Positions 983 through 34,476 of a DNA stretch of 57,437 nt are shown here, piece after piece. The first letter of the stretch is position 1, and the number at the start of each line of letters is the position of its first letter. The translations under genes were made by a program, and so were the position numbers. Under the pieces are notes generated by a model. The model worked only from the letters and a program-made list of their open reading frames with translations, did no database searches and was not told the DNA's origin. Source of the stretch: an uncultured Candidatus Saccharibacteria bacterium (GTDB taxonomy: Bacteria > Patescibacteriota > Minisyncoccia > Sungbacterales > JACQCQ01); assembly GCA_964494945.1 (NCBI GenBank), contig CAZBTX010000005.1, positions 1-57,437 on the forward strand, written 5' to 3'.

Positions 983-1206
983 AGGGCTTTGTCTAAAATT
1001 ATGAGCGAAGCGAAATCAATTTTAGGAACAAAACCTTTATCCCGTTAGAAATTAACACTAGAGTCAATATGCAAAATATCCGCGACAAGCAGAATATAGA
1101 CGAAGCCAAAGGAGCGTTAGGTCATCTAGCGTTAATTTCTAACGGGATGCTCAGTATTCAACCTAAATTTTATTCGTTAACTAACTCTAAAATTTAGAGA
1201 ATACTG
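980..1206. repeat. spc-operon intergenic repeat copy 1 (186 bp, 1021-1206, identical to 2176-2361); contains an 18-bp inverted repeat at 1039-1056/1131-1148
   Basis: Direct comparison; arms ATCCCGTTAGAAATTAAC / GTTAATTTCTAACGGGAT; the 5' part TAAAGGGCTTTGTCTAAA is also shared. Confidence 0.95.
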
Positions 1207-1208
1207 GC

Positions 1209-1700
1209 ATGGCACGACCACCACGAGGCGGTATGAGACGCGGCAGATTTCCGAAAGAAAGATCGGAATTCGACCAAAAAACTTTGGATATTAGGCGTGT
1301 AGCACGCGTGGTGAAAGGCGGGCGGCGTTTTAGTTTTCGCACCACCATTGTTTTGGGCAACAGAAAAGGCAAAGTGGCGGTGGGACTCGGTAAAGGGGCG
1401 GATGTGGCGCTTTCCATTGATAAGGCCGTGGCCAACGGCAAAAAGAACATGATTTTCGTACCCACCACGAAGAGCGGCAGTATTGCGCACGATGTTTCGG
1501 CAAAATACGGGAGTGCCATGGTACTACTGCGTCCGGCCGCCGATGGTCGCGGTCTAATCGCCGGCGGGCCAGTTCGGGTCGTGGCATCTTTGGCCGGTAT
1601 TCAAAATCTTACATCTAAGATTTTATCCCGAAGCTCCAATAAACTTAATAACGCGAGAGCCACTATTGAGGCCTTGAAAAAGTTAAAACAAAACTCTTAA
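1209..1700 (+). CDS. rpsE: 30S ribosomal protein S5
   Basis: RRVARVVKGGRRFSFR and GLIAGGPVR motifs. Confidence 0.98.
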   Translation: MARPPRGGMRRGRFPKERSEFDQKTLDIRRVARVVKGGRRFSFRTTIVLGNRKGKVAVGLGKGADVALSIDKAVANGKKNMIFVPTTKSGSIAHDVSAKYGSAMVLLRPAADGRGLIAGGPVRVVASLAGIQNLTSKILSRSSNKLNNARATIEALKKLKQNS

Positions 1701-1704
1701 AACC

Positions 1705-2136
1705 ATGCAGCTTCATACTTTAAAGTCGAATACCAAAATGCGTAGAGGCCAAAGGATAGGCCGCGGCGGAAAACGCGGCACTACTTCCGGTCGGGGCACT
1801 AAGGGCCAGAAGTCCAGAGCGGGACATAAAATTCGTCCGCAAATCCGCGAGATAATAAAGCGTATTCCCAAGCTTCGCGGCTATAAGTTCCGGTCGTTCC
1901 GCAAGCAGGCCGTGTCGGTCTCACTTGCAACTCTTGAGAAGAATTTTTCAAAAGGCGATAGGATATCCGCGAGGGCGCTAATGGAGCGCGGAATAGTTAA
2001 AAATGCCGGAGGTATTAAACCGCGCATTAAGATTCTTGGTTCTGGACCCGTTAGCAAAAGTTTTTCCATTGTAGGTCTTGAAATGTCCCGTGGGGCTCGG
2101 GCGGCAATTGAGAAAGCCGGGGGCAGCATTAAGTAA
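1705..2136 (+). CDS. rplO: 50S ribosomal protein L15
   Basis: RIGRGGKRGTTSGRGTKGQKSRAG motif; directly follows rpsE with no rpmD. Confidence 0.97.
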   Translation: MQLHTLKSNTKMRRGQRIGRGGKRGTTSGRGTKGQKSRAGHKIRPQIREIIKRIPKLRGYKFRSFRKQAVSVSLATLEKNFSKGDRISARALMERGIVKNAGGIKPRIKILGSGPVSKSFSIVGLEMSRGARAAIEKAGGSIK

Positions 2137-2361
2137 AGGGCTTTGTCTAAATTTTGGAGCCGTGAAGCGACAAAATTTAGGAACAAAACCTTTATCCCGT
2201 TAGAAATTAACACTAGAGTCAATATGCAAAATATCCGCGACAAGCAGAATATAGACGAAGCCAAAGGAGCGTTAGGTCATCTAGCGTTAATTTCTAACGG
2301 GATGCTCAGTATTCAACCTAAATTTTATTCGTTAACTAACTCTAAAATTTAGAGAATACTG
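2134..2361. repeat. spc-operon intergenic repeat copy 2
   Basis: 2176-2361 is identical to 1021-1206. Confidence 0.95.
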
Positions 2362-2363
2362 TC

Positions 2364-3629
2364 ATGTTCCAGAAACTTCGCTTACTCGTTACTTCTCCAG
2401 AACTTCGGAATAAGTTCTTATTTGTAATAGGGGCTCTGGCAGTATTTAGATTATTCGCGGCCATTCCGGTGCCGGGGGTGAACGCCGAGCGTCTCAAAGG
2501 ATTTTTGGAGGGCAATCAGTTCTTCGGGCTTTTGAATATATTTTCCGGCGGGGCGCTTTCCAATCTGTCTATCGTAATGTTGGGGGTGGGACCTTATATC
2601 ACCGGCTCCATCATCATGCAGCTTTTGACCATGATATTTCCGCGTTTAAAGGAAATGTATCAGGAAGAAGGCGAGGCGGGGCGCCGACGCTTTAACCAGT
2701 ATTCCAGGATTCTTACTGTGCCCTTGGCCATTTTACAGTCATACTCGCTGCTTATCCTTTTGATAAAACAGCAAGTAATTGGTCAATTGACGCCTTTTGG
2801 ATTCGCCACGAATATCTCGGTGATTACGGCGGGGACTTTAGTATTAATGTGGCTGGGAGAACTGATAACCGAAAAAGGGATAGGCAACGGCATCTCACTT
2901 TTGATATTTGCCGGCATTGTTTCCAGATTCCCTACTGATATCCGGCAAGCCCTCATAACTTTTGATGTTTCTCAATCGCCGACTTACCTCATATTTATTA
3001 TCGTCGCGCTTTTGGTTATTGCGGGCGTCGTGATCGTTAGTGAAGGGCAAAGAAACGTTCCGGTCTCTTATGCTAAACGTATTCGCGGCATGCGGGTATA
3101 TGGCGGCGTTTCCACGCACCTACCTTTAAGAGTTAACCAGGCCGGCGTTATTCCCATTATATTTGCCATTTCTATAGTGCTTTTTCCGGGGCTTATCGGA
3201 AATGTTTTGGCGGCCGTCCCGCAGTCATGGGCGCAAACGGCCTCGCAATTTTTAATTTCGGCTTTTAATAACACCTGGGTATACGGCTCCGTGTATTTCT
3301 TGCTGGTTTTTGCTTTCACTTATGTTTACACGGCCATTACTTTTGACCCGCAGTCCATTGCCGACAACATCCAAAAACAGGGCGGATTCATTTTGGGGAT
3401 TCGCCCGGGGCGCCCCACGGCGGAGTATTTGACCTCCATTCTTTCCCGCATCACTTTGGCCGGGGCTTTGTTCCTAGGCGTGATTGCTGTTTTGCCTCTG
3501 ATTGCGCAAGGCGTTCTGAAAATCAACGCTTTCACGCTGGGCGGCACGGCGCTTTTGATAGTGGTTTCGGTGGTGCTTGAGACCATGAAGCAGATAAATT
3601 CGCAGCTTGTAATGAGAGAATATGATTAG
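2364..3629 (+). CDS. secY: Preprotein translocase subunit SecY
   Basis: LGVGPYITGSIIMQLL, GIGNGISLLIFAGI, IRPGRPTAEYL and GGTALLIVV motifs; about 10 TM segments. Confidence 0.98.
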   Translation: MFQKLRLLVTSPELRNKFLFVIGALAVFRLFAAIPVPGVNAERLKGFLEGNQFFGLLNIFSGGALSNLSIVMLGVGPYITGSIIMQLLTMIFPRLKEMYQEEGEAGRRRFNQYSRILTVPLAILQSYSLLILLIKQQVIGQLTPFGFATNISVITAGTLVLMWLGELITEKGIGNGISLLIFAGIVSRFPTDIRQALITFDVSQSPTYLIFIIVALLVIAGVVIVSEGQRNVPVSYAKRIRGMRVYGGVSTHLPLRVNQAGVIPIIFAISIVLFPGLIGNVLAAVPQSWAQTASQFLISAFNNTWVYGSVYFLLVFAFTYVYTAITFDPQSIADNIQKQGGFILGIRPGRPTAEYLTSILSRITLAGALFLGVIAVLPLIAQGVLKINAFTLGGTALLIVVSVVLETMKQINSQLVMREYD

Positions 3630-3650
3630 CTCGATAGCTTTTTGGAAATC

Positions 3651-3680
3651 AGCAAAAACCCTCCAGCGAGGGTTTTTGCT
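3651..3680. terminator. Intrinsic terminator after secY
   Basis: AGCAAAAACCCTC-CAGC-GAGGGTTTTTGCT hairpin. Confidence 0.8.
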
Positions 3681-3785
3681 TCACCGGGCTCCTCATCTTG
3701 GTTGTTTGCTTAAGGTAGCCGCTTCGCGGCTTTTATTTTACTTGCTTTTGTTTTTGTTGAATTTAGGTATGATTACGATAAGGAT

Positions 3786-4274
3786 ATGATATATACCGCG
3801 CGCCAATTTTTTATAGGCATATTAGTGGCCATTATCGTGGCGGGCGCTGTTGGCTATTATTTGGGCCAACGTAGAGCTAAAACAGAGAGCAAAGTTGAAC
3901 CCGAAGTGTCAACTGGTCTTGATATTACTTCTTCCGTATTGCCGGAGGGGGACGCGGGTATTGCGGTTGACGATCAATTGCCGGGTAATCAAGTTTTTAT
4001 TTCCAAAGTTACATTAAATGAATCGCGCTGGATCGCCATTCACGAAGACAAAAATGGCGCCCCGGGCAATATCATAGGCGCTGGACGTTATGCCAAAGGC
4101 CTTACCGCTTCCACATCCATTGAATTACTGCGCCCCACGGTGAGCGGCGTATATTACGCCATGATCCATACGGATGATGGGGATAGCGAGTTTGATTATC
4201 AAAAAGACGTTCCGGTAATTTCCGATGGTCATGCTCCAATGACGCGATTTTTGATTGGTAAGGAAGAGGAATAA
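3786..4274 (+). CDS. Membrane-anchored beta-rich hypothetical protein (CPR-typical)
   Basis: N-terminal TM helix followed by a WIAIHED...GNIIGAG / YYAMIHTDDGD domain. Confidence 0.75.
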   Translation: MIYTARQFFIGILVAIIVAGAVGYYLGQRRAKTESKVEPEVSTGLDITSSVLPEGDAGIAVDDQLPGNQVFISKVTLNESRWIAIHEDKNGAPGNIIGAGRYAKGLTASTSIELLRPTVSGVYYAMIHTDDGDSEFDYQKDVPVISDGHAPMTRFLIGKEEE

Positions 4275-4281
4275 AAATCGG

Positions 4282-4962
4282 ATGAACCCGCGTCCCTTCA
4301 TTCTTTTTATTTTCGGCCCTCCGGGGTCGGGAAAATCCACGCAGGCGGAATTGGTAGCCGGAGAATTTGGTGCTACGCATTTTAATACTGGTGAAGTATT
4401 GCGGCGCATTTTTAAAGACCCGGCCAACGCACTTGACCCCAAAATCGTTTATGAAAGCAAGGCCGAAGAGCGCGGAGAATTGACCGATTCTAACTGGGTT
4501 AAAGACATAGTTTTAGAGGAAATTGCCAAGTTGAGAGCTGAAAATAAAAGTGTTATTTTTTCCGGCTCCCCCCGAACCATTTTTGAGGCCGAGGCGGAAC
4601 TCCCGAAATTCAAGGAACTTTACGGCGAGCTGATTTTTCTTTGTATCCTGCAAATTCATGAAGAAACGACGATGTACCGCAATTCGCACCGCAAGGTGTG
4701 CTCATCCTGCGGCAAGGTTTTTGCTTGGTCATCTCAATCCGAAAGAATGATGATCTGCGATGTTTGCGGTGGGGGATTAGTGACGCGCCCCGACGACGCT
4801 CCCCAGGTCATAAAAAAACGACTGCGGGTTTATCGCCAGTTGACCTTGCCCATTTTGAAATTTCTTGAATCAGGGGGGGTGAGATCCTTCACCATTGACG
4901 GCGAGCCGCCGCCCGAGATAGTATTTCAATCTTTGAAGAAAGAACTCCAGAAGTTAATCTAA
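4282..4962 (+). CDS. adk: Adenylate kinase with Zn-type LID
   Basis: GPPGSGKSTQA P-loop; CSSC...CDVC LID; RPDD motif; start moved to ATG 4282 because the rplF-style longer ORF start overlaps the upstream gene. Confidence 0.9.
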   Translation: MNPRPFILFIFGPPGSGKSTQAELVAGEFGATHFNTGEVLRRIFKDPANALDPKIVYESKAEERGELTDSNWVKDIVLEEIAKLRAENKSVIFSGSPRTIFEAEAELPKFKELYGELIFLCILQIHEETTMYRNSHRKVCSSCGKVFAWSSQSERMMICDVCGGGLVTRPDDAPQVIKKRLRVYRQLTLPILKFLESGGVRSFTIDGEPPPEIVFQSLKKELQKLI

Positions 4963-4966
4963 CGAT

Positions 4967-5152
4967 CCCGTTAGCGATCCGCGACCGCAAAAACAACTAA
5001 AGGTACAATAGGATATCCTATTGTACCAATGAAGAATAAGATGACGAATAGCATGAATGGAATAAAATTAAAGTGGAATGATCGCGACCTGCCCGCCAGC
5101 CCGCTTCGCCATAGCTTCAGCGGGGCGAGCAGACAGGTCTGCTTCTAACAGG
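4967..5152. repeat. CCCGTTAG...TCTAACAGG element filling the adk-map gap, with an internal 26-bp perfect palindrome (5002-5027)
   Basis: Left end CCCGTTAGC, right end GCTTCTAACAGG; GATCGCGACCTGC (5080-5092) is the exact reverse complement of 57167-57179. Confidence 0.75.
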
Positions 5153-5965
5153 ATGATTACGATAAAAACTCCTGAAGAAATTGAGACATTGAAGCGCGGC
5201 GGACATATTTTGGGCCGAATTCTTTCCGAAATTGCCGAGTCCGTACGTCCCGGCATTTCCACCAAGGACTTGGATGATTTGGCCGAACGCTTGATTTTGG
5301 CATCGGGCGGCGAGCCGTCGTTCAAGGGATATAACCCATATGGCGCCAAGGCCGCCTATCCTTCGGCGCTTTGCGTATCCGTGAACGACGAGGTAGTGCA
5401 CGCCATACCGCATCGTAAGCGAATTTTAGAAGAGGGAGACATTGTGGGGCTGGATATTGGCATGTGGTGGCCCGATAGAAAATCAAAAATCAAAAATCAA
5501 AAATCAAAATTTTGGAGGCCGATGGCGACGGATACGGCCGTGACTGTCGGCGTAGGAAAAATTTCCAAGACGGCCGAAAAGCTGATTCGCGTTACAAAAG
5601 AAGCGTTGGAGCTTGGTATTAAAGAAGTGCGCGCTGGCGCCAAAATCGGGGACATCGGAGCCGCAATTCAGAAACATATTGAAAAATATGGATTCGGCGT
5701 GGTGCGTGATTTAGCGGGGCACGGCGTGGGGTATAAAGTTCACGAGGATCCTTTTGTGCCAAATTATGGAACACGTGGCGAGGGGCTAGTTCTAAAAGAA
5801 GGCATGGTGATTGCGATTGAACCAATGGCAACCGAGGGCACCTGGAAAGTTATTTTGGACAAAGACGAGTGGTGTTTTAGAACGGCTGACGGCAAGCTGG
5901 CGGCCCATTTTGAGCATACGGTGGCGGTGACCAAAAACGGCGCTAAGGTACTAACTTTACCATGA
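5153..5965 (+). CDS. map: Methionine aminopeptidase type I
   Basis: LCVSVNDEVVHAIP, DIG, GHGVG, IAIEPM and AHFEHTV motifs; start at ATG 5153. Confidence 0.96.
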   Translation: MITIKTPEEIETLKRGGHILGRILSEIAESVRPGISTKDLDDLAERLILASGGEPSFKGYNPYGAKAAYPSALCVSVNDEVVHAIPHRKRILEEGDIVGLDIGMWWPDRKSKIKNQKSKFWRPMATDTAVTVGVGKISKTAEKLIRVTKEALELGIKEVRAGAKIGDIGAAIQKHIEKYGFGVVRDLAGHGVGYKVHEDPFVPNYGTRGEGLVLKEGMVIAIEPMATEGTWKVILDKDEWCFRTADGKLAAHFEHTVAVTKNGAKVLTLP

Positions 5966-6348
5966 AGTATCTGGGGCTGGATTACGGCAGAGCGCGGGTC
6001 GGCGTCGCTGTTTCCGACGACGAGGGGAAAATGGCGTTCCCGCGGTCAGTTTTGCTTTCTCAACCGGAGGAGAAGCTTTTTAAATCGCTGGCAGAGATCT
6101 CAGAAGCAGAAAAAATTAAAACCATAGTTTTGGGTATGCCGCCAGCTATGCCGGACGTAGACCAGAGCTTGGCCGGCGAAATCAAAGAATTCAGTCGTAA
6201 ATTGAGAGAGTTGGGTATGGAAGTTCTGTTTGAAAACGAGATGTTTACGACCAGGATCGCCGAGGCGCACTCTAAGAAAGATACGGACGCCTCGGCAGCA
6301 GCCCTGATTTTGCAGAGTTTTTTAGATAGGAAGAATAAGATAGAATAA
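5962..6348 (+). CDS. ruvX: YqgF/RuvX RNase-H-fold nuclease
   Basis: YLGLDYGRARVGVAVSD, NEMFTT and DASAAALILQSFLD motifs. Confidence 0.92.
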   Translation: MKYLGLDYGRARVGVAVSDDEGKMAFPRSVLLSQPEEKLFKSLAEISEAEKIKTIVLGMPPAMPDVDQSLAGEIKEFSRKLRELGMEVLFENEMFTTRIAEAHSKKDTDASAAALILQSFLDRKNKIE

Positions 6349-6558
6349 AGTAAAAGCCCAACGGGCTACCCCAGCAAACCCTAAACGAAGAACCTCTTTT
6401 TAAAACGCTCGATTGACGAGGAGAGACGCGAGAGCGACTGCGAATGCAGAAGCTCCCGTCTTCGGCCATGGTTTCCGAAGGAAGAGCGAGGAAATCGGCG
6501 AGTCTGATTTTCTCGGTTGGAAAATCAGACGATTTTGAAAAGATGGTTCGAGTGACCT

Positions 6559-8320: not shown

Positions 8321-8324
8321 TTCC

Positions 8325-11778: not shown

Positions 11779-12585
11779 ATGCGCTACGACGGTGCCGGAC
11801 ACTTCAAATCAGTATGCGGATATACAATAGAGGGAATTTGGTATCCCCGAGTGACTAAAATTCTGGACATTAAATCCAAACCCGCGCTGGATAAATTTTT
11901 CCAGGAGATGGGCTCATACGATTCGGCCGAGGCCGTGAAGAATAAATCCGCCGAGGAAGGGTCTTTGGTGCATGAAGTGGCGCAGAAACTATTAACGGGA
12001 GAAGATATTGCCATTCCGCCGGAAATGGAGCCCGCCATTAAAAAACTTCTGGAGTTCAACGAGGAACGGAAAATGGCGTTTTATCCCGAGTTCGTGGAGC
12101 GCCAAGTTTGGTCCAGAACGCACCGCTACGCGGGGACGGTGGATGCCTTGGCGGTGATTGACGGAAAGTTCGGCGTTCTGGACATCAAAACCTCACCCGG
12201 CTTTTATCCGGAATACAATCTGCAAACGGCCGCCTATATGTCGGCTTTGCAAGAATACGAAATAAAGAAAGTACTGGGCCTTACGAGACCCATAGAAACC
12301 CGCTGGATATTAAGAATTAACCAGCATAGCATTTGCGCCCGATGTGGCGCTAAACTCCGTGAAAAGGGCGGAAGGTCAAAAATCAGGAACGGCAAGTCAA
12401 ACGGCGTAAAACCCTGCCTTGAGGCCGAGCACGAGTGGGAGAGCCCTGAAGGTGACATTGAATTAAAAGAGTTCCCTTATTACTATAAAGACGCAAAAGC
12501 ATTCTTGGCGGCTAAAACTCTTTGGGAATGGGAGAACGATTATTGGTTGAGGCAAATAGGTTATCTTAAGAACGGTTATGCCTAA
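11779..12585 (+). CDS. PD-(D/E)XK (RecB/Cas4-like) nuclease with Cys/His insert
   Basis: YAGTVDAL...VLDIKTS...YNLQTAAY motifs; CARC...CLEAEH insert. Confidence 0.85.
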   Translation: MRYDGAGHFKSVCGYTIEGIWYPRVTKILDIKSKPALDKFFQEMGSYDSAEAVKNKSAEEGSLVHEVAQKLLTGEDIAIPPEMEPAIKKLLEFNEERKMAFYPEFVERQVWSRTHRYAGTVDALAVIDGKFGVLDIKTSPGFYPEYNLQTAAYMSALQEYEIKKVLGLTRPIETRWILRINQHSICARCGAKLREKGGRSKIRNGKSNGVKPCLEAEHEWESPEGDIELKEFPYYYKDAKAFLAAKTLWEWENDYWLRQIGYLKNGYA

Positions 12586-13651: not shown

Positions 13652-13659
13652 ACGTTTGC

Positions 13660-14174
13660 TTTCACATCCGTAAGCCGAATTCTGTTGTCACCGTGCCTCG
13701 CTACCGCTCGGCACTCAGCAACATGGGGCAAGCGACATGCGACATGGCAGTTACGCTAAAAGCGAACAGTACCTTGTCCCTTGTCGCTTGTTGCTTGTCA
13801 CTCGTGCTGAACAATAGTGAGGCACGATGCGTGGCCATCTGTCTTGGCGTACGATTGCTCGCACGCTCCAGCGGACTACTTGTCTTAGGGCGAGTTTGGA
13901 CCTCGCACTAGTTTGTCCTTGCACCAGATAGGGTTTTCCACCCGTGTATGTTGCCAAACACGGAAGTCGCGTTCGACGCGACACTTTTCACCTTTGGTCG
14001 TGACATTATTGTGGCGGTCACAACTAGTATAGTCTCTGTGGCACTTATCCCGCCAGCGCGCTCCGCGCGCAGCGTACAGCGGTTAGCGGACAGCGGATAG
14101 TCAAAACTATACGCTACGCGCCATACGCTATGCGCTAGGTGCGAAGCACACCGGGCGGCCATCTCGATGTAAAA
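13660..14174 (-). ncRNA. rnpB: RNase P RNA (type A-like) with expanded P3/P19 and no CR-I/P4 5' strand
   Basis: Minus strand shows P1 (uuuacauc/gaugugaa), P2 (UGGCC/GGCCA), CR-II AGUGCCACAGAGA, CR-III AGGUGAAA, GGUGCAAGGACAAA, P18 with GCAA loop, CR-IV AGACAGAUGGCC and CR-V ACAGAAUUCGGCUUAC. Confidence 0.9.
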
Positions 14175-14183
14175 GACCCTCTT

Positions 14184-14212: not shown

Positions 14213-14243
14213 TAGGTTAGCTACGTTCTCAAAGCCAGTTTGA

Positions 14244-14366
14244 CCCCGTTAGAGGTCCGATTTGCCTGCAAATTGGCGGCAATCTTAAGTCGGTTTTCTG
14301 ATAAAATGGCGTTTAGCCATGCTAAGGGTATTATGGCACTAAAGCGATTGCCTACCCCTAACGGGG
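14244..14366. repeat. CCCCGTTAG...CTAACGGGG element
   Basis: TTGACCCCGTTAGAGG at the left end and CCCCTAACGGGGTTTGAC at the right end. Confidence 0.85.
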
Positions 14367-14448
14367 TTTGACGCATGTCTTTATTCTAAACTAAGATGAG
14401 TGTACTATTAGTCAGGCGTAACACTATAACTTCTTAAATTACTGCATC

Positions 14449-18805: not shown

Positions 18806-19636
18806 GTGGGGCGCATAAGGTTAAAGATAGAAAAAGAAAAACTGAAAAATTTTTACATTGAGCAAAGACTTCCTTATCGGAAAATTGCCAAGTGTTTTTC
18901 TTGCTCCCGCGATACCATACGAAATCGCTTGCTTGAGTACAAAGTTAGAATAAGGAATAGGGGTGAATCACTTACCAAATATCCTAAAGTTGATTTTTCG
19001 GGGAATAAAGTCGAAGGAGCGTACCTGATGGGGTTTAGAATCGGTGATCTTAACGTTTATAAACCTTGTGCTGGGTCATCTGTTATAGTCGCAAGATGTC
19101 ACACTACTCATCCCAATCAAGTTCGGCTTATGAAAGAACTGTTCGGGCAGTATGGGCGCGTAACAGTATCACATTCTGCCACAGGCTCATTCCATATCAA
19201 TTGTTATTTAAATCAAACATTCAATTTCTTATTTTTGAAAGATTCAATACCACAATGGGTGAAGAAAAATAGGCATACATTCTCAGCATTTATTGCTGGC
19301 TATACTGACGCCGAGGGTAATTTTATTTTGAATCAAAAGCGCGGAAGGTTTAAGATAGATTCTTATGATTTTAAGATACTAGATGGAATTAAAGACTTTT
19401 TAATCATGAGTGGCGTGGGAGTTAGGTTTAGGCGAATTGCTCAAAAAGGAGGAGAAAGAGGGCGGGGTAAAAAATGGAATAATGACCTTTGGCGTCTCAA
19501 TGTTAATGAGGCAAGGTCCTTGAAGAAATTTATTAGATTTATCTGGCCATATTTGCGGCATGAAAAAAGAAGGGCCGACGCTGGGGTAGTTTTAGAAAAT
19601 GTGAATTCTAGGATAAGCAATGAAACCACCAGATAA
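18806..19636 (+). CDS. Free-standing LAGLIDADG endonuclease-like protein with N-terminal HTH
   Basis: AYLMGFRIGDL and AFIAGYTDAEGNF motifs; LYxxQRLxYRKIAKxFSCSRDTIR HTH; AT-rich relative to neighbours. Confidence 0.82.
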   Translation: MGRIRLKIEKEKLKNFYIEQRLPYRKIAKCFSCSRDTIRNRLLEYKVRIRNRGESLTKYPKVDFSGNKVEGAYLMGFRIGDLNVYKPCAGSSVIVARCHTTHPNQVRLMKELFGQYGRVTVSHSATGSFHINCYLNQTFNFLFLKDSIPQWVKKNRHTFSAFIAGYTDAEGNFILNQKRGRFKIDSYDFKILDGIKDFLIMSGVGVRFRRIAQKGGERGRGKKWNNDLWRLNVNEARSLKKFIRFIWPYLRHEKRRADAGVVLENVNSRISNETTR

Positions 19637-26247: not shown

Positions 26248-26319
26248 ATACCTAAAGATAAATTATGTTAAAAGAGTACCGCAAAATTCGCCCTTAGGCA
26301 AAGGAAGGAGGCGGGCTGA

Positions 26320-26547
26320 ATGAACGGGTTCTGGCGAGGGTTTTGGAAGTTCCTGAATGCCGAACTGGAGCCGGCGGATGCGATCAGAATTCCCTTTTTG
26401 GTTCTAGCACTCGTTTTGCTTTCCGTTCCGGCGTCAGTCCACCGCTGGAAGCAAAAAAGAGCCGAGAGAGCGCGCCGGCAACTGGAGGTCGCTGACCTCG
26501 CAGTGTATCGGGGGGAGATGGAACCAAAAACCGGAGAGTCGCCCTGA
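26320..26547 (+). CDS. Small membrane hypothetical protein
   Basis: AGGAGG upstream, one hydrophobic segment, followed by a hairpin. Confidence 0.55.
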   Translation: MNGFWRGFWKFLNAELEPADAIRIPFLVLALVLLSVPASVHRWKQKRAERARRQLEVADLAVYRGEMEPKTGESP

Positions 26548-26548
26548 C

Positions 26549-26578
26549 ACGGCCCCCATCGCAGACGATGGGGGCCGT
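26549..26578 (+). terminator. GC-rich hairpin terminator
   Basis: ACGGCCCCCATCG-CAGA-CGATGGGGGCCGT. Confidence 0.65.
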
Positions 26579-26674
26579 TATCAATTGTATTTATTAAATT
26601 AACTCACTCGCCCGGCCGCAAAACTTTTCTAATCAATCATTTCAATCATTCTTAGTTAGTTATTATTGATCATT

Positions 26675-26694
26675 TACATAATTTATTCCTATAG
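26675..26694. promoter_or_regulatory. 20-bp site upstream of the PaaX-like gene (direct repeat of 27270-27289)
   Basis: TACATAATTTATTCCTATAG abutting a TAAAAT -10-like box. Confidence 0.75.
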
Positions 26695-26711
26695 TAAAAT
26701 AATATGTATAT

Positions 26712-27269
26712 ATGAAAAAACTGCGACGGTTGGGGAGTGTGCAACGCGGGATTATGCAGCTTTTGGATCAAGTTGGAGCGATGAGTTTTGTGTTACTAAC
26801 TTCTGGAAAACACGCTAAAACTATTCTACGGAATTATCATCAACGTTCGCACGAGCGAGTTATTAGCTCTTTGGAGTCATTGAAACGTCGTCGGCTGATT
26901 AATATCGCGGATGACGGAACGGAAACCCTTATAACTCTAACACGTGATGGCAAACGCGAGTTGCTTCGTTACGGTTTAAATACCATGGTGCTCTCGCGTA
27001 AACAAAATTGGGATGGTGTGTGGCATATGGTAATTTTTGATATTCCAGAGCGGTATGGGAAAGCGCGACGCGCGCTGTCTTTCAAAATTCAATCTATTGG
27101 AGCATTTCGTTTGCAGGATAGCGTGTATGTGTATCCATTTTCTTGGCAGAATGAAATTGATTTCTTGAGTGAGTTTTTTCATGTAAGTCCGTTCATCCGA
27201 TACATTAAAGCCAGTTTTGTGGAAGGAGAAGAAGATCTTTTGCGGCGCTTCTCTTTGCATAAACGATAA
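26712..27269 (+). CDS. PaaX-like regulator (wHTH plus Cas2/ferredoxin-like domain), CPR family
   Basis: SLESLKRRRLI..ITLTRDGK wHTH; WDGVWHMVIFDIPE..RALSFKIQSIGAFRLQDSVYV. Confidence 0.82.
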   Translation: MKKLRRLGSVQRGIMQLLDQVGAMSFVLLTSGKHAKTILRNYHQRSHERVISSLESLKRRRLINIADDGTETLITLTRDGKRELLRYGLNTMVLSRKQNWDGVWHMVIFDIPERYGKARRALSFKIQSIGAFRLQDSVYVYPFSWQNEIDFLSEFFHVSPFIRYIKASFVEGEEDLLRRFSLHKR

Positions 27270-27303
27270 TACATAATTTATTCCTATAGGAATAAATTAT
27301 GTA
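27270..27303. repeat. 34-bp perfect palindrome directly after the PaaX-like stop codon
   Basis: TACATAATTTATTCCTATAGGAATAAATTATGTA equals its own reverse complement. Confidence 0.92.
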
Positions 27304-27343
27304 AGAATCTCTGCTATGCAGAAATCCCTGCATTGCCGCGGAT

Positions 27344-30300
27344 TTACAGAAGTTCGCTCACCTGGTCGCAAAGGACCTTGGGTTCGCCGTCTTTTTCCGA
27401 GACCTTGCCTCTGACTAAGAGCACTTTATCCATTTGCCAGATATTCGGGTTTTTGGCGAGCAGCGATGGGAATACCAGAACTTCGGTTCTGGCGGTGGTG
27501 TCTTCCATGGTTACAAATAGCATGGAGTCGCCGCTTTTGGTGAGAATTTTCTTGACTTCGGAAACAATGCCGCCAATTGAGACCTGGCGGCCTCTAACGG
27601 ATTCGGCACCAAGTCCGCGTATGGGTATAGCTTTTTCTTTGAGTTGGGAAACGAAATCAGAAAGCGGGTGCTCCGTTACATAAAGACCCAGTAATTCTTT
27701 TTCCCATTGGAGGCGCTCTTTTTTGGAGGCAGATTCAGTGGGGGTGAGACGAAGCGCCGAGGCGACCTCGGGGCTCCCGCCGAATAAACTGGTTTGATTG
27801 GCGGTATTTTGACTCGCCAAACTGCGCGCATAGTTTAAAATTAAATCCATATTTTGCAATATCTGGTTTCTTTCGCCCAAACTATCCAGTGCTCCGCATT
27901 TGGCAAGTGCTTCAAGCGATTTCCGGTTTAGGTCTTTCATCAGCAGTCGTTCTATGAAGTTAGCCAATCCCGTAAACTGGCCATCGGCTTTTCGTGCCTT
28001 GATAATGGCCTCCACAATATTAGACCCGACATTTTTTATGGCCGAAAGCCCAAAACGGATTTTCATGGGCGGCTCAAAATTGATAACGGTAAAGTTCTCA
28101 AAACTCTCATTTACATCCGGCGCCAAGACCTCGATGTCCATGGATTTGGCCTCGTCAATCAAGGTCGCCACGCGTTCAATATCAAATCCTTCCGCCGTCA
28201 TTAAGGCCGCCATGTATTCGGCGGGGAAGTGGGCCTTTAAGTATCCCGTCTGATACGCCACGAGCCCGTAGCAAGCGGCGTGCGACCGGTTAAATCCATA
28301 TCTGGCAAAAGCCGGGAAAAGTTCCCAAATATTCTCTGCCGTTTGGCGGTCAATGCCTTGCCGCACCATACCGGCTATCAATTTTTCTTCCTGCTCGGCT
28401 AAAAGCGATTTTATTTTTTTGCCAATGGCTTTTCTAAGCGTATCGGCTTCGGGAAGCGTGTAGCCCGCCAAATCGCGCGCGATTCTCATCATTTGCTCCT
28501 GATAAACGCCGATGCCATAAGTGGGGGAGAGTATGGGTTTTAATTTGGGATGCAGATAGTGTATGTCCTCTTTGCCATGTTTTCGTTTGATATAACTTGG
28601 CAGATATTCCATGGGGCCGGGGCGGTATAACGCCACCATGGCGATTAGGTCTTCCAATTCCGTTGGCCTTAGGTCTTTTAGGAAACGCTTCATGCCGGAT
28701 GACTCCATTTGGAAAACGCCGGTGGTCTTGGCATCCTGAAAAAGCTTGTATGTTTTTTTATCGTCCAGCGGCAAGTCGTCAATATTTATATCAATACCTC
28801 GCAGTTTTTTAATAATTTCCACGGCTCGCTCAATGATAGATAAGTTGCGAAGCCCCAGAAAGTCCATTTTCAAAAGTCCCAGGTCTTCCACGCCGTGCAT
28901 GTCATATTGGGTTACCAGAACCTCTTCTTGGGACTGGCCTTGGGAACGAGTGGCGTATTGCAAGGGCACGAAATTTTCCAAGGGTTCCGGCGCTATAACG
29001 ACACCCGAGGCGTGTATTGAAGCGTGCCGCGCTACGCCCTCCAGTTTTAAGGCGGCATCAATTAGGCGCTTGGCTTCGGGATCGTTGGCGTATAAGGTCT
29101 TTAATTCCTGCACTTCCCCCAAGCACTGTATCAACCATCCCTCTTTCATGCCTTGAGTGGGATTGAAAGGAATAAGTTTGGCGAGCTGGTCGCAGAAAGC
29201 ATACGGCATACCAAGGGCTCTTCCCGTATCACGAATGGCGGCACGCGCCGCCATAGTTCCAAAGGTAATAATTTGCGCCACCCTGTCGGCCCCGTATTTC
29301 TTCTGAACATATTCAATAACTTTGTCTCTCCCGGTATCGGCAAAATCCAAGTCAATATCGGGCATGGCAATGCGCTCGGGATTTAAGAAGCGTTCAAAAA
29401 GAAGATTGTAGTGAATGGGGTCAATGTTGGTAATGTTCAAAACATAAGAAATTAAAGAGCCGGCAGCCGAGCCGCGCCCGGGACCGACGATGATATTTTG
29501 AGTTCTCGCCCAATTTACAAAATCCTGCACTACCAGGAAATAAGAAATGAAGCCGGTCTTTTTGATTATTTCAAATTCGTAATTATAGCGCTCGCGGATA
29601 GCTTTTACGGCAGGGTCTTGGCTTTTAGCTAAGTCGTTTGGTTTAATGCCGTACCGTTTTTCTATGCCGCCTAAGCATAACTTTTGAAAATAGGTTTCTT
29701 GAGTAAATCCCGGGGGAGTGGCGTAGGGAGGAATCTTATTTTTGCCGAGCTCAATTTCAAGATTTACCGAATCGGCGATTTTCGCGCTATTTTCAATGGC
29801 TTCCGGCAGGTCGATAAAGAAAGAAGCCATTTCTTCCGGTGAGCGGATAGAAAGATTTGCCTCACGCATGGTCAAGCGATTTTCGTCTTCAAACCGGGCG
29901 CCGGTTTGGACCGAAACCAGAATGTCCTGGGCTTCCGCGTCATCGGCGCGGCAGTAATGAATATCGTTCGTGGCAACCAGCTCCGCCCCCGTTTTTTTGC
30001 CGAGTTCCCGCAGCATTTCGTTTTTTACTTTTTGGTCCGGGTAGTTAAAATGCGGCATTATCTCAAGGTAGAAGTTTTCTTTGCCGAAAATGGATTGGTA
30101 TTCGCGGATTAATTTTTCCGCTTTATCCAATTGCCCGGCTTCCAGTGCTCGAGACACCTCTCCGTTAAAACAGCCGGAAAGGGCTATTAACCCTTTTGAA
30201 TATTTACCCAAGAGCTCTTTATCAACTCGCGGCTTGTAATAAAAACCCTTAAGGTGCGCGGCCGTAACCAATTTGACCAGATTGTGATACCCCTCGGTGG

Positions 30301-30580
30301 TTTTAGCGAGCACCGTTAAGTGAAATCGGCGGTCATCCAATCCCGCGTCTTTATCCGTCATTTTGCGGGCCGCGATATACATTTCGCATCCGATGATGGG
30401 TTTTACTCCCGCCTTTTTGGCTTTTTGGTAAAACTCAATGGCGCCGTATAAATTGCCGTGGTCGGTGAGCGCCACGGAGTCCATTCCCAGTTCTTTTACG
30501 CGCGCGACAAGTTCATCAATTTTGGTGAGGCCATCAAGCAGAGAATAGTGAGAGTGGACGTGCAAGTGCGCGAATCGCAT
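27344..30580 (-). CDS. dnaE: DNA polymerase III alpha subunit
   Basis: HLHVHSHYSLLDG PHP domain; GPGRGSAAGSL, MPDIDLDF, LLKMDFLGLRNL and GFNRSHA motifs; start at ATG 30580; no intein seen. Confidence 0.98.
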   Translation of the reverse strand: MRFAHLHVHSHYSLLDGLTKIDELVARVKELGMDSVALTDHGNLYGAIEFYQKAKKAGVKPIIGCEMYIAARKMTDKDAGLDDRRFHLTVLAKTTEGYHNLVKLVTAAHLKGFYYKPRVDKELLGKYSKGLIALSGCFNGEVSRALEAGQLDKAEKLIREYQSIFGKENFYLEIMPHFNYPDQKVKNEMLRELGKKTGAELVATNDIHYCRADDAEAQDILVSVQTGARFEDENRLTMREANLSIRSPEEMASFFIDLPEAIENSAKIADSVNLEIELGKNKIPPYATPPGFTQETYFQKLCLGGIEKRYGIKPNDLAKSQDPAVKAIRERYNYEFEIIKKTGFISYFLVVQDFVNWARTQNIIVGPGRGSAAGSLISYVLNITNIDPIHYNLLFERFLNPERIAMPDIDLDFADTGRDKVIEYVQKKYGADRVAQIITFGTMAARAAIRDTGRALGMPYAFCDQLAKLIPFNPTQGMKEGWLIQCLGEVQELKTLYANDPEAKRLIDAALKLEGVARHASIHASGVVIAPEPLENFVPLQYATRSQGQSQEEVLVTQYDMHGVEDLGLLKMDFLGLRNLSIIERAVEIIKKLRGIDINIDDLPLDDKKTYKLFQDAKTTGVFQMESSGMKRFLKDLRPTELEDLIAMVALYRPGPMEYLPSYIKRKHGKEDIHYLHPKLKPILSPTYGIGVYQEQMMRIARDLAGYTLPEADTLRKAIGKKIKSLLAEQEEKLIAGMVRQGIDRQTAENIWELFPAFARYGFNRSHAACYGLVAYQTGYLKAHFPAEYMAALMTAEGFDIERVATLIDEAKSMDIEVLAPDVNESFENFTVINFEPPMKIRFGLSAIKNVGSNIVEAIIKARKADGQFTGLANFIERLLMKDLNRKSLEALAKCGALDSLGERNQILQNMDLILNYARSLASQNTANQTSLFGGSPEVASALRLTPTESASKKERLQWEKELLGLYVTEHPLSDFVSQLKEKAIPIRGLGAESVRGRQVSIGGIVSEVKKILTKSGDSMLFVTMEDTTARTEVLVFPSLLAKNPNIWQMDKVLLVRGKVSEKDGEPKVLCDQVSELL

Positions 30581-30649
30581 GGTGTTACTATTATAGTCAG
30601 GCGAGGGGGTTAATTGGTAGTAGACAGCCAGTTGATTTATAGTCAAATC

Positions 30650-31336
30650 ATGCGACAGCGTTTTATCCCCACATCTTCCAGAGGGCCCAGTGGTCTTACC
30701 GCGGGGATGAGGAGACATGCCTTAAGGTCATTACCACGGAATGCAGTACCCCCTAAGAAGGTGTGGGGATTTATCGGCGGTATTGATGAAGCGGGGAGAG
30801 GGCCTTTAGCTGGGCCGGTGTCATTGGCGATGGTAGTAGCTCCTAAAGGATTTAGATTTTATCATCCCGAACTGGGAAAAATCAGGGATTCAAAGAAGCT
30901 TACTCCCAAGCGCCGCGAGATCTGGCATAAGTTTTTAACGACTCATCCTAAGCTCTCGTATGTCAGGACCTATGTCCATCCCAGAGTCATTGATAGGATA
31001 AATATCGCCAAAGCCGCGCATCGGGGGGCCTTGAGATTGGTGCTTCGTTCCGAAACGCGGCCGCATTTTGTTTATCTTGATGGGGCGCTCTCGCTTCCTC
31101 CGGAAATCCTGCACAAGGTGGTAATCCGGGGGGACGACAGAATTCCTATAGTCGCGGCCGCTTCTATTATTGCCAAGGTCGCGAGAGACAGGTACATGAC
31201 GCGGCTGGCTAAAAAATTCCCCAAATATAGGTTTGACGCGCACAAAGGATACGGCACCCGCGTTCATATAAAGGCCATTAAAAAGTACGGTCCGTCTCCA
31301 TTCCATAGGGAGTCATTTATTTCGTCGTTTGTTTGA
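30650..31336 (+). CDS. rnhB: Ribonuclease HII
   Basis: GIDEAGRGPLAGPV, DSKKL, RGDDRIPIVAAASIIAKVARD and HKGYGT motifs; start uncertain. Confidence 0.95.
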   Translation: MRQRFIPTSSRGPSGLTAGMRRHALRSLPRNAVPPKKVWGFIGGIDEAGRGPLAGPVSLAMVVAPKGFRFYHPELGKIRDSKKLTPKRREIWHKFLTTHPKLSYVRTYVHPRVIDRINIAKAAHRGALRLVLRSETRPHFVYLDGALSLPPEILHKVVIRGDDRIPIVAAASIIAKVARDRYMTRLAKKFPKYRFDAHKGYGTRVHIKAIKKYGPSPFHRESFISSFV

Positions 31337-31361
31337 CCAGTGTTCAGTTTTTCCGTACTAT
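31333..31361 (+). promoter_or_regulatory. Putative sigma70 promoter for tRNA-Ile
   Basis: TTGACC-17 bp-TACTAT. Confidence 0.55.
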
Positions 31362-31411
31362 AGCGGGGTATAATTTTAGAATAGATTAGCTCAGCTTGCC
31401 CCGCCACCTCT

Positions 31412-31483
31412 GGGCGTGTAGCTCAGTGGTAGAGCGCGTCACTGATAATGACGAGGTCCCAGGTTCAATCCCTGGCACGCCCA
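31412..31483 (+). tRNA. tRNA-Ile(GAU), CCA not encoded
   Basis: Acceptor GGGCGTG/CACGCCC, D arm, anticodon arm CGTCA-CTGATAA-TGACG, T arm CCAGG-TTCAATC-CCTGG. Confidence 0.95.
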
Positions 31484-31506
31484 CCCAGAGGTGGCGGGGT
31501 GAAGTA

Positions 31507-31562
31507 GGGCGGTCCGATGTCCATCGGACAGGTCGGAAGTTCGATCCTTCCGTCGCCCACCA
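31507..31562 (+). pseudogene. Truncated tRNA-like element (acceptor stem, T arm, CCA)
   Basis: GGGCGGT/GTCGCCC-A-CCA; T arm GGAAG-TTCGATC-CTTCC; D and anticodon arms replaced by one hairpin GTCCGAT-GTCC-ATCGGAC. Confidence 0.75.
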
Positions 31563-31640
31563 GATGGAACTTTCCCGATTTTTGCCCGCTCGCCGGAAAG
31601 TGATTGCAGAAGAACGAAAAAAGAGCTATTAATATCTGCA

Positions 31641-33290
31641 ATGAAAGGATTCTCCACAATTGTATTAGCTTTGCTGTTGGTGGTCGCTTTTTCTCTGCCC
31701 GCCTCTGCTTCAGCCGCAACAAATCCAGGCGTAAAGCCTGGGAGCTTCTTTTATTTTTTTGATACGACTTTTGAGAAAATAGGTTTGTTTTTCACATTTA
31801 GTTCCGAAGGTAAAGCGAGGAAAGCATTGGAATATGCCGATGAACGCTTAGCTGAAGCGGAAGTAGTCACAGAGAATGCCGAGGCGGTAAAAACGGCCAT
31901 AACGAATTACGAGAGCAATATCGCTTTCGCGGAGGAAAAATCTAAAGATATCGGAGACAAAGAAAAAGCTGGGGCATTACTCACTTCAATTGCCGACAAT
32001 ACTTCAAAACACCAAGAAGTTTTGACGGATGTTTTAGCTAAAGTCCCCGATGAGGCGAAAGAAGCTATAACGAGAGCAATCGAAGCAAGTAGAAAAGGAC
32101 ATGAAGAAGCAATGCAGAAAATAGCCGAGCTGAAAGGCGAGGTTGAGCAGTTAAAACAAGAAGTTACCGAATTGAAAGCAAAAGACGAGGAACGAGAAAA
32201 AATAATTGAGGAACTGAGCAATCAGAAGCAAAAAACCACACCTCCGCCTGCCAAGTCATCTACCCCAAAAACCTCTGCCACGCCGATCCCTAAACCAGCA
32301 ACGATCCCATCTCAAACTCAAACGCCAGTGAACGAGCCGCAAAGCACCCTACCAACTAACCAACTTCCAAACAATACAACTAATACCACGCCGCCTCCAA
32401 CAACCCAACCCACTACCACACAACCGCCGACGCAACCCTCAGTGACGCCAGAACCATCACCAGTGGTCTCGCCTTCGCCAACTCAAACCCCAACACCTAC
32501 ACCTGCTCCAACTCCGGCTCCGACCCCAACATCCGCCCCATCGGCACATTTTTCAAAATATGGTTTTGACGCGCCGGAAATTGTTAATTGGACAACCAGG
32601 CAAGAGAGCTGGGCCCCTAATGTGGCCGAGCTTAAAATCGATTTAGTAGAAAAAGACATGAGGGAAGCTGTGGTATCGCCTACATTAACCAGTGTTAGTT
32701 TGGGTAAATTTTCTCTACATCTACCAAGAGATACCTACATCGGAAGTGATATCAGCGTTTCAGCAGCTTTTTGGAGCAATGATTTAAGCAACAGAAATGA
32801 TCAGCTCTACGGCATAAATAAAAATGTTTTCAAAAGATTATACCTGAAGAACGACATATACGGCGAAATAACTTTCCCAGCCGTGCTAACCGAATCCACA
32901 GACTACTACTTCAAAGGGAATTACTACGTTAATTTCTTTGGCGCAAAACTGACAAATACAATAATTCCAAATACTGTTGTTTCTAAAGTTAATATTTCTG
33001 GGAATAGGCTAGTTTTGCAGGATACCGAAATAGTGTTTGAAATTTTTCTTGAACTCCAGTGCACAAATACGCAGTGCCTAGACCCCGACGGTCAAAGTAT
33101 TAACTATCTTAATAATGGGCATCTGCAACCGAAGATTGGTGTTGGTTATAAAAGCTATAACTATAATCAAGAAACTAATAATTATACGAGCGTAGAGGTT
33201 CAAAATGTATTGTTAAATTCTGACGGTAGTTTGAAAGAACTCGGGATAAATTTCTTTGGCAGACTTTTAGTTTTCAAAGCAACAAATTAG
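31641..33290 (+). CDS. Secreted DUF5667-like protein with coiled coil, Pro/Thr linker and unknown C-terminal domain
   Basis: Signal peptide; GVKPGSFFYFFD..ERLAEAE; PT-rich linker. Confidence 0.8.
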   Translation: MKGFSTIVLALLLVVAFSLPASASAATNPGVKPGSFFYFFDTTFEKIGLFFTFSSEGKARKALEYADERLAEAEVVTENAEAVKTAITNYESNIAFAEEKSKDIGDKEKAGALLTSIADNTSKHQEVLTDVLAKVPDEAKEAITRAIEASRKGHEEAMQKIAELKGEVEQLKQEVTELKAKDEEREKIIEELSNQKQKTTPPPAKSSTPKTSATPIPKPATIPSQTQTPVNEPQSTLPTNQLPNNTTNTTPPPTTQPTTTQPPTQPSVTPEPSPVVSPSPTQTPTPTPAPTPAPTPTSAPSAHFSKYGFDAPEIVNWTTRQESWAPNVAELKIDLVEKDMREAVVSPTLTSVSLGKFSLHLPRDTYIGSDISVSAAFWSNDLSNRNDQLYGINKNVFKRLYLKNDIYGEITFPAVLTESTDYYFKGNYYVNFFGAKLTNTIIPNTVVSKVNISGNRLVLQDTEIVFEIFLELQCTNTQCLDPDGQSINYLNNGHLQPKIGVGYKSYNYNQETNNYTSVEVQNVLLNSDGSLKELGINFFGRLLVFKATN

Positions 33291-33300
33291 TAAAATTCTC

Positions 33301-33576
33301 ATGAAGATGTTTTCTCCCTACGCTTCAAGTCAAATCTTTAAGTTCCTAGCACTGATCGGAATTCTGGGAATAATATATTTTGTTAGGCATTGGGTAGTCG
33401 CTTCCGTTGGTATTTTTATATTGGGTACGTTCATAGCTTCAGAGGCATTTATATTGATGTTGGCTCGCTCGATGTTTAAGAATCCTACAGACGAGAATGT
33501 AGTAAAATTGTTTATGGTTTTACTCTTTAAAGACGCGGAGCAAGCCAACAAGATATTAGGTCAGTATAAGAAATAA
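33301..33576 (+). CDS. Small two-TM hypothetical protein
   Basis: AT-rich 91-aa ORF in tandem with the upstream gene. Confidence 0.6.
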   Translation: MKMFSPYASSQIFKFLALIGILGIIYFVRHWVVASVGIFILGTFIASEAFILMLARSMFKNPTDENVVKLFMVLLFKDAEQANKILGQYKK

Positions 33577-33653
33577 AATTTCTTCTTTCCGCAACCTTTC
33601 TCCAGCGAGCGGGCAAAAAATGGAGGGGGTGAGGGGGGGGAATTTTGCCCGCG

Positions 33654-33808
33654 AGCCGTCCGAAGCCCCGCCGCCCGCTCGGGAATAGCAGAGCCAAGCA
33701 AAATACTCTTTTCCTTTTAGAAGAATTTTTTGGTGGCGCGCGCAAATCGGAAATCGTAGAGAGTATTTTGCTTGGCGGCGAGCGTTAGCGAGCGGCGGCG
33801 GGGCGGCT
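33654..33808. repeat. Long GC-rich foldback (MITE-like) element
   Basis: Inner perfect 17-bp IR GCCAAGCAAAATACTCT (33693-33709) / AGAGTATTTTGCTTGGC (33760-33776); outer arms GCCCCGCCGCCCGCTCG / CGAGCGGCGGCGGGGC. Confidence 0.85.
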
Positions 33809-33869
33809 GTTTCCGTTCAGCAATTCCTGCTAAAATAGGTTCGAGCAAACTCGTAAAGATACACAAATT

Positions 33870-33899
33870 TAAACACCGGCAATGCATTGCCGGTGTTTA
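33870..33899. terminator. 30-bp perfect palindrome, probable terminator
   Basis: TAAACACCGGCAATGCATTGCCGGTGTTTA. Confidence 0.7.
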
Positions 33900-33926
33900 G
33901 GTGTCGGGTCGTGAGATGTCCTTGCT

Positions 33927-34166
33927 TCAAATCTTCGGCGTTACTTCTCCCAGTACTTTAGGATTAAACCCCATTTTCTTAATGCGAGTTCCTAGTTTCC
34001 ACTTGCCGTTCTAGAAGTGAGTTATCTGCATCTGACCTAACACGATCCTACCTTTACCAATTAATTTGGTAGCCCTATTCTTTATGAGAAAAATATATTT
34101 GTCAAGAAACTCAATTTTCTATTAGTTGCTTTTTTAATTTTCTAAATCGTCTAAGATGACACTCAC
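33927..34166 (-). pseudogene. 79-codon minus-strand frame interrupted by one TAG (34011-34013)
   Basis: VSVILDDLEIKKATNRKIEFLDKYIFLIKNRATKLIGKGRIVLGQMQITHF*NGKWKLGTRIKKMGFNPKVLGEVTPKI, ending before the palindrome. Confidence 0.35.
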
Positions 34167-34370
34167 ATCTTATTTAATTGACTTTATCCTAGTAGTATGC
34201 AATGGTAAGTATCTCCGCTCGGGTTATGCCCACACACCAATCTCGGCGAGACACTTTCGTATGCCGAGATGACAAGGCGAAGCCGCCTATCGGCTTGCAC
34301 ATCTGTTGTTGAGAATGTTTCTTCAAGATTGGTGTGGGGGTGAACCGAGAATTAGTGCAGGGGACGTTTA

Positions 34371-34476
34371 ACCCGTTAGAAAATTTATGGCAGGATTTAT
34401 ATCTGGTTAAAGCTCTAGATTTTAAATCCGGAGGACTTAACCTTTTTGAGCCCCTAGTTAAATTTTCTAATTGGGT
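34371..34476. repeat. Degenerate CCCGTTAGAAATT element in the helicase leader
   Basis: ACCCGTTAGAAATTTA ... TAAATTTTCTAATTGGGT. Confidence 0.7.

Follow-up and report, generated by a model that had tools for sequence, protein, structure and literature searches.

The 57,437-nt stretch analysed here over its full length (contig CAZBTX010000005.1; hereafter, the window) is a gene-dense part of a genome of Candidatus Sungbacteria, within the candidate phyla radiation (CPR), and carries the gene order rplF-rplR-rpsE-rplO-secY-DUF7282-adk-map-ruvX followed by many further housekeeping genes. Scattered among these genes are short elements bounded by the inverted repeats CCCGTTAGA and TCTAACGGG, which an earlier reading of the sequence (the original prediction) had described as about eight copies with unrelated interiors and had taken for a non-autonomous mobile or recombination-site family that carries variable cargo and reshapes gene junctions. 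Our results support a non-autonomous mobile family that reshapes gene junctions, and they provide a candidate parent for it, a cassette of less than 300 bp containing a single gene for a GIY-YIG nuclease; a recombination site, conversely, is not favoured.

The bracketing pairs of inverted repeats named in the original prediction, and those of the array at the end of the window, are real. The window contains 11 occurrences of the motif CCCGTTAGA or its complement, as compared with 0.41 expected, and none of 100 shuffled sequences reached 11. Seven elements are complete and one is cut by the window end (Table 1), and a rescan of the window tolerating up to three mismatches did not yield additional convincing copies. 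In correction of the original prediction, the copies at 1039 and 2194 should not be taken as independent, since they belong to the same 194-nt duplication. Every element of the window folds into a long hairpin closed by its arms, with folding z-scores from -3.8 to -6.8. The copies span 106-188 nt and no reading frame runs through any of them, nor does the window encode a transposase, a recombinase or a GIY-YIG gene, in agreement with the predicted non-autonomous character. At the adk-map junction, the stop codon TAA of adk (4960-4962) lies, as had been noted, inside a TCTAAC (4958-4963) immediately upstream of the element, and the right arm is directly followed by position 5153, the A of the map ATG. 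We also confirmed that the GATCGCGACCTGC of this copy (5081-5093) is the reverse complement of positions 57167-57179, in unit 1 of the terminal array.

The family extends well beyond the window. A scan for exact CCCGTTAGA-N80-110-TCTAACGGG, with one genome per species, retrieved at least 120 loci, and all those listed came from CPR bacteria, Omnitrophota, Planctomycetota, Deltaproteobacteria and a few other candidate phyla; chance matches would have spread over all bacteria. A phage origin was discarded, with only three matches among 2.9 million viral contigs. Likewise, Rfam returned no family for the elements at either gathering or E-value thresholds, in searches of the window and eight further loci.

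Comparison of 127 short copies defined their ends as (C/T)CCCGTTAGA and TCTAACGGG(G/A), with the extra outermost base pair present in 96% of the elements. The next four bases on each side form a direct repeat, in one register only and with 77-83% identity per position; its consensus is T-N-N-A, and its commonest versions are TGAA, TAAA, TGGA and TGAG. A reading frame of at least 60 codons begins at the last base of the element in 58 of 109 testable cases, so that the terminal A or G, together with the TG of the flanking repeat, makes up the ATG or GTG of the downstream gene. Past the conserved 10 bp, the stems stay paired and vary in sequence, and the interiors are unrelated, as originally claimed; one arm pair (L103, 432-538) surrounds a complete tRNA-Val(GAC) gene within a tRNA cluster. 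Many short copies carry a short module beside one arm only, which faces the downstream gene in 30 of 34 cases, and in a subfamily from Omnitrophota and Deltaproteobacteria the orientation of the interior was always paired with a (G/A)TAAA flank (7/7). Where copies stand in tandem, their junction is a 24-26-bp palindrome, TCTAACGGG-RTNNAY-CCCGTTAGA. The neighbours of the 120 loci look like diverse housekeeping genes, and clustering of their 874 reading frames revealed no recurrent partner of at least 90 residues.

Examination of orthologous junctions supports the predicted mobility. The pilB-pilC junction is filled in L060 and L130, where it reads ...gataaATGAAT[element]ATGAAAttt, and empty in the 85-86% relatives L131 and L132, the latter reading ...ATGAAAttt. 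Similarly, the window and L124 have an element, if a degenerate one, at the adk-map junction, whereas in L125 and L126 this junction is empty and its stop and start codons overlap. There are also nested insertions: at the L16-L29 junction of L126 (CP066690.1) one element sits within another and has its own flanking ATAAAT, and in L011 a short copy splits a GIY-YIG gene. In L135, the TGA of the upstream gene is kept in the left copy of the repeat and the start of the downstream gene has changed from ATG to GTG, this glycosyltransferase starting GTGAAAATC (MKIGIVLHPYGED) because the element ends in G. The idea that the family reshapes gene junctions is therefore supported, with start codons assembled from the terminal A/G and the flanking TG, and stop codons provided by arms and flanks.

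At wider spacing, the same arms enclose a gene. Longer arm pairs in four of the genome loci (L110, L011, L034 and L123) contain a small GIY-YIG gene, and a scan of metagenome contigs for arms 245-275 nt apart gave at least 120 loci; among the matches listed, 95 of 123 such pairs enclosed a GIY-YIG homolog, near full length in 81. An arm pair 1 kb apart in L062 was rejected as a chance match inside a gene. The full-length element measures around 275-290 bp, and its only gene encodes an 86-residue GIY-YIG nuclease. The left arm, (C/T)CCCGTTAGAR, is followed by a 10-20-nt leader and then by the 86-codon frame, of the UPF0213/Slx1-like type. The right arm consists of the last codons of the gene, TTC CTN TCT CTA ACG GGR (FLSLTG), which in a longer version read ...AAG CGC TTC CTA TCT CTA ACG GGR (KRFLSLTG). 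The stop codon of the nuclease gene is not part of the element, and corresponds to the next three flanking bases, T(G/A)A; the codon after GGR was TGA or TAA in 58 of 78 full-length copies. The association of gene and arms was also seen in loci found through the protein alone, with no selection for arms: both arms are present in L133 and L135, the left arm has decayed in L134, and L261 contains a full copy, a GGGG-GTAAAC-CCCG junction and a decayed second copy of the gene in tandem. Additionally, the 754 kb of contigs selected for the full-length element hold 40 arm pairs of the short size.

Both forms lie at gene boundaries, typically where a stop codon overlaps the next start (ATGA). The left copy of a flanking TGAA preserves the stop codon of the upstream gene, and the terminal A/G with the right TGAA gives the ATG/GTG of the downstream gene. 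In 15 of 35 full-length copies ended by T and A, the frame opened by the original ATG, which is stranded on the left together with its ribosome-binding site, crosses the left arm (MNPVR...) and continues into the nuclease; in L133 there is no start codon other than this stranded upstream ATG.

The nuclease matches the Pfam family GIY-YIG (PF01541) with E = 6e-14. Its own family comprised 1744 members at E <= 1e-5, most of them of exactly 86 residues, 70-85% identical and ending in KRFLSLTG, from sources annotated as Omnitrophota, Patescibacteria, Portnoybacteria and Flavobacteriales. The GIY and YIG motifs and the catalytic Arg, His and Glu are present, with residues Y5, G18, R26, H30 and E50 invariant. 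The predicted structure (mean predicted local distance difference test score, 91.6) shows a GIY-YIG core plus a basic C-terminal helix, and its best matches among solved structures are the UPF0213 protein 1ZG2, Slx1, At-HIGLE and I-TevI, and also UvrC. In sequence and fold, the closest proteins are those of UPF0213 (BH0048, PDB 1ZG2; EF2693, PDB 1YWL) and Slx1/HIGLE. Slx1 and HIGLE cut branched DNA, which would fit an action at the foot of a hairpin or cruciform, but Slx1, unlike the nuclease described here, needs Slx4 and carries a RING domain. UPF0213 proteins are without known function, and we found no description of them with inverted-repeat ends. Separately, L124 contains at 12273-12563 a gene for a 96-residue GIY-YIG protein that belongs to another subfamily and lacks CCCGTTAGA arms, inserted between genes for a glycosyltransferase and GalT; this insertion is absent at the same junction in the window, L125 and L126.

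A DNA profile of the full-length elements matches the short copies only over their last 25-60 nt. The copies of the window keep the arms and some of this 3' end: one reads ...FLSLTG, that at 4966-5153 reads ...LLLTG and then a TGA overlapping the map ATG at 5153, and that at 34371-34476 reads, on the - strand, ...FLTG and then TAA. They thus appear to be gene-less relatives of the full-length form. Taken as a whole, the explanation that we consider probable is that the CCCGTTAGA...TCTAACGGG elements are miniature forms without a gene, related to a very small cassette bounded by inverted repeats. The nuclease would recognise the duplex of the arms, or the foot of the hairpin or cruciform that they can form, and would cut beside them, after which host repair or ligation would move or copy the element into T-N-N-A sites. 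Short copies might be moved in trans, or might be remnants of full-length copies that decayed. By inserting exactly at a stop/start junction, with re-initiation of translation afterwards, the element would be nearly harmless for the host. We put forward more tentatively, as a proposal that may well prove wrong, that the 86-residue GIY-YIG protein itself mobilises the element of around 275 bp, which would then be among the smallest autonomous DNA elements known. The protein would recognise its own hairpin-forming ends of 10-15 bp, place the element at T(G/A)AA stop/start junctions and borrow the start codon and ribosome-binding site of the host; the elements would constitute a GIY-YIG-based class of prokaryotic transposons, with miniature derivatives, that has moved among CPR bacteria, Omnitrophota, Planctomycetota and Deltaproteobacteria.

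Several observations weigh against this explanation. The interiors of the short copies do not resemble the 5' two-thirds of the gene and contain no trace of its start, the start signature M-[FYWVI]-Y appearing in one of 58 short copies in either orientation; simple internal deletion does not, therefore, explain their origin. The flanking direct repeat, common in T/A-ended copies, occurs in just 7 of 38 full-length elements ended by C and G, most of which instead extend the inverted repeat by 5 bp with covariation (TTYAC/GTRAA); in T/A-ended copies, inverted-repeat flanks were not above chance after allowing for the fixed T and A. As the direct repeat is not universal, a true target duplication is inseparable from insertion beside a tetranucleotide that ends the element itself. 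The window lacks any full-length copy. Identical GIY-YIG proteins (P0290 and P0348) were each found at a single locus across many samples, and a recent multi-copy spread of the full-length form is thus not supported. Finally, the role of the nuclease in mobility is one that we infer.

The hairpins could alternatively be RNA structures selected by the host, such as stems for processing or stabilisation or devices for translation coupling, with the GIY-YIG mRNA using the same 5'-3' clamp and DNA mobility being secondary. We consider this unlikely, although much of the anatomy of the elements is compatible with it: all copies form a strong hairpin whose stem remains paired outside the conserved 10 bp despite sequence variation, the flanks of C/G-ended full-length elements lengthen the stem with covariation, the arm-adjacent module is usually directed towards the downstream gene, and the tRNA gene enclosed in one element recalls a processing stem. 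Moreover, upstream mini-frames invariably terminate no later than the second start codon, and in-frame spacing is the least common (8/47). However, the folding energies of sense and antisense strands did not differ significantly (33 against 25, p = 0.13), Rfam offered no match, and filled and empty sites together with nested insertions indicate events at the DNA level. Conservation of the 3' arm is accounted for by its coding for FLSLTG, and exact conservation of sequence across phyla is unexpected for a purely structural stem.

It is quite improbable that the miniature elements are moved by a conventional transposase with an Asp-Asp-Glu (DDE) catalytic triad, for example one related to IS1380/piggyBac, with the GIY-YIG gene as passenger cargo. 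Superfamilies of miniature elements that share only their ends are well known, and the terminal inverted repeats together with a 4-nt direct repeat of symmetric consensus, T-N-N-A (compare TTAA), would suit such an enzyme, as would ends that start with CCC and finish with GGG, as in piggyBac. Nevertheless, this likeness is formal only: there was no transposase gene between such arms in around 1.7 Mb of loci, and what arms 245-275 nt apart enclose, in the proportion given above for the matches listed, is a GIY-YIG gene whose last codons are the arm. Furthermore, a symmetric transposase would not impose the fixed orientation with respect to an asymmetric flank seen in the one subfamily. The relationship between IS1380 and piggyBac is itself present in the literature.

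We give marginally less credence still to the arms being half-sites for a tyrosine or serine site-specific recombinase, with small cassettes exchanged as occurs with integron attC sites or Xer/pdif modules. The palindrome of tandem junctions does resemble a core site, with the direct repeat located at the would-be overlap region, the orientation is fixed relative to the asymmetric repeat, and the interiors vary as cassettes do. Isolated copies, however, have half-sites only, and the arm codes for part of the nuclease. Relative to attC (RYYYAAC...GTTRRRY), the order GTTAGA...TCTAAC is reversed, and there is no integrase or other recombinase in the window; none recurred among the neighbour-gene clusters of the 120 loci, whose members were not scanned with Pfam. 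Lastly, repetitive extragenic palindromic (REP) sequences or their hairpin-forming doublets (REPINs), of similar size and hairpin form, moved by a REP-associated tyrosine transposase (RAYT, an HUH Y1 enzyme) are largely refuted, because the RAYT-like genes, present in 4 of 120 loci, close to chance occurrence, carry other hairpins (those of L016, from 7360, L040, 278-988, and L105, 3586-4245, are flanked by short REP-like ones of their own, further copies of which, in L040 and L105, also lie in frame within the RAYT-like gene, whereas L073 showed none), and because REP families are lineage-specific whereas the CCCGTTAGA family crosses phyla.

Among known systems, the short copies are most readily compared with bacterial miniature inverted-repeat transposable elements: they are gene-less, bounded by inverted repeats, hairpin-folding, intergenic and co-transcribed, most have a short flanking direct repeat, a longer relative has the same ends, and they vary in presence at orthologous sites. 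Unlike in those elements, however, the longer relative encodes an 86-residue GIY-YIG nuclease and no recognised transposase, copies within a genome share their ends only, the 10-nt ends are identical across several phyla, and an end serves both to encode protein and to donate a base of a start codon. Free-standing genes for GIY-YIG homing endonucleases (the I-TevI family and the Seg proteins of phage T4) are likewise selfish nuclease genes, located between housekeeping genes and present or absent among relatives; in contrast to these, the gene described here is bounded by inverted repeats, has its stop codon in the flank and has gene-less derivatives at many unrelated sites, and its product is a catalytic domain plus one helix, without a separate DNA-binding domain. 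Rickettsia palindromic elements and REP/REPIN-RAYT systems also consist of dispersed palindromes tolerated in or between essential genes, and REPINs, as hairpins of about 100 nt, have conserved ends too, but each of those families is confined to a lineage and conserves its interiors, and the partner of REPINs is an HUH transposase.

A search of the literature on the motif, on miniature elements of CPR bacteria and on small GIY-YIG genes retrieved no published description. The nearest is a survey that lists a GIY-YIG domain protein among the genes for which it infers transfer from Patescibacteria to other bacteria (PMC12455944). An 86-residue nuclease gene bounded by inverted repeats that double as its coding end, with its stop codon in the flank, gene-less derivatives and identical ends across phyla, is thus an apparently new combination. 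Should these elements prove to be moved by the small GIY-YIG protein, a nuclease family not known as a bacterial transposase would be acting as one, in a near-minimal selfish gene. This would also provide a function for the widespread small GIY-YIG proteins of the UPF0213 type, whose solved structures have none assigned, and would account for one source of the contig breaks, intergenic expansion and replacement of ATG by GTG starts in the streamlined genomes of CPR bacteria. Because the ends are identical in several phyla, they offer a sequence marker of gene flow between ultra-small bacteria and their neighbours, and enzyme engineers would take an interest in a protein of 86 residues whose recognition site is about 10 bp long.

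Table 1. Elements and associated repeats in the window. Arm positions are given as left/right.
Feature	Position	Strand	Arm positions	Remarks
Composite intergenic repeat	1018..1211	+		194 nt, 99% identical to 2173-2366; carries copy 1; ends at the rpsE start codon
Short element copy 1	1040..1147	.	1041/1138	T at 1040 to A at 1147; 18-bp perfect basal stem
Composite repeat, second copy	2173..2366	+		Ends at the secY start codon
Short element copy 2	2195..2302	.	2196/2293	Identical to copy 1; between rplO and secY, in the second composite repeat
Degenerate long copy, GATCGCGACCTGC subfamily	4966..5153	+	4967/5144 (one mismatch per arm)	Arms CCCGTTAGC and TCTAACAGG
Short element, right arm with one mismatch	14244..14366	.	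14245/14357 (one mismatch)	Between the RNase P RNA gene and a gene for a tetratricopeptide repeat (TPR) protein
Degenerate short element	34371..34476	-	34372/34466 (right arm degenerate)	+ strand right arm TCTAATTGG; upstream of a DEAD-box helicase gene
Terminal array unit 1, GATCGCGACC subfamily	57156..57267	-	57157/57258	- strand reads ...RDLLLTG
TTGA tetranucleotide between adjacent array units	57268..57271	.		Found again at 57152-57155 and 57393-57396; lies where the flanking direct repeat is expected
Terminal array unit 2	57272..57392	+	57273/57383	Reads ...HFLSLTG, a tail shared with GIY-YIG proteins
Terminal array unit 3	57397..57437	+	57398 onward to window end	Same sequence as the beginning of unit 2; truncated at the window end

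Within the window, the flanking direct repeat is clear only in the terminal array and around the element at 14244-14366, where it is the 7-nt GTTTGAC (14238-14244 and 14366-14372). The terminal array is arranged head-to-tail, and the NCBI contig of the same organism (GCA_016181625.1) likewise ends inside it. We discarded that this array is a clustered regularly interspaced short palindromic repeat (CRISPR) locus, for which we looked for repeats of 24-40 nt, unique spacers of 26-72 nt and cas genes: its 'spacers' would measure 92 and 101 nt, unit 3 repeats unit 2, and cas genes are absent.

Copies 1 and 2 spread further by another route, the duplication of a larger, lineage-specific intergenic module of 194 nt, of which copy 1 is the central hairpin; a third, partial copy, comprising the 3' part of the module, lies at 13-55. 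In related genomes (L124, L125 and L126), a composite of around 230 nt specific to Sungbacteria occupies many ribosomal-protein junctions, with other central hairpins. Its parts are a hairpin on the 5' side (AAGGGCTTTG...), a long hairpin of varying arms in the centre and, on the 3' side, TGCTCAG...TTTAGAG..ACTGGCATG; the composite ends exactly at the start codon of the downstream gene.

The window contains other features of note. Positions 13655-14175, on the - strand, match the bacterial RNase P RNA (class A) with 94.7 bits, as compared with a gathering score of 100; the match spans 521 nt against the 367 nt of the model, and the RNA thus carries insertions. An open reading frame (ORF) of 84 residues inside this match (13908-14162) is unlikely to be a gene. 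An ORF of 185 residues (26712-27269) with a PaaX central (Cas2-like) domain is bracketed by two copies (26674-26709 and 27269-27304) of a palindromic hairpin of about 34 nt. Between murJ and lepA, a 276-residue ORF (18806-19636) shows a weak match to LAGLIDADG_3 (E = 5e-5), and may be a free-standing gene of the homing-endonuclease type. Finally, two adjacent giant ORFs of 1639 and 1697 residues (36551-41470 and 41495-46588) contain internal repeats of 145-300 nt.

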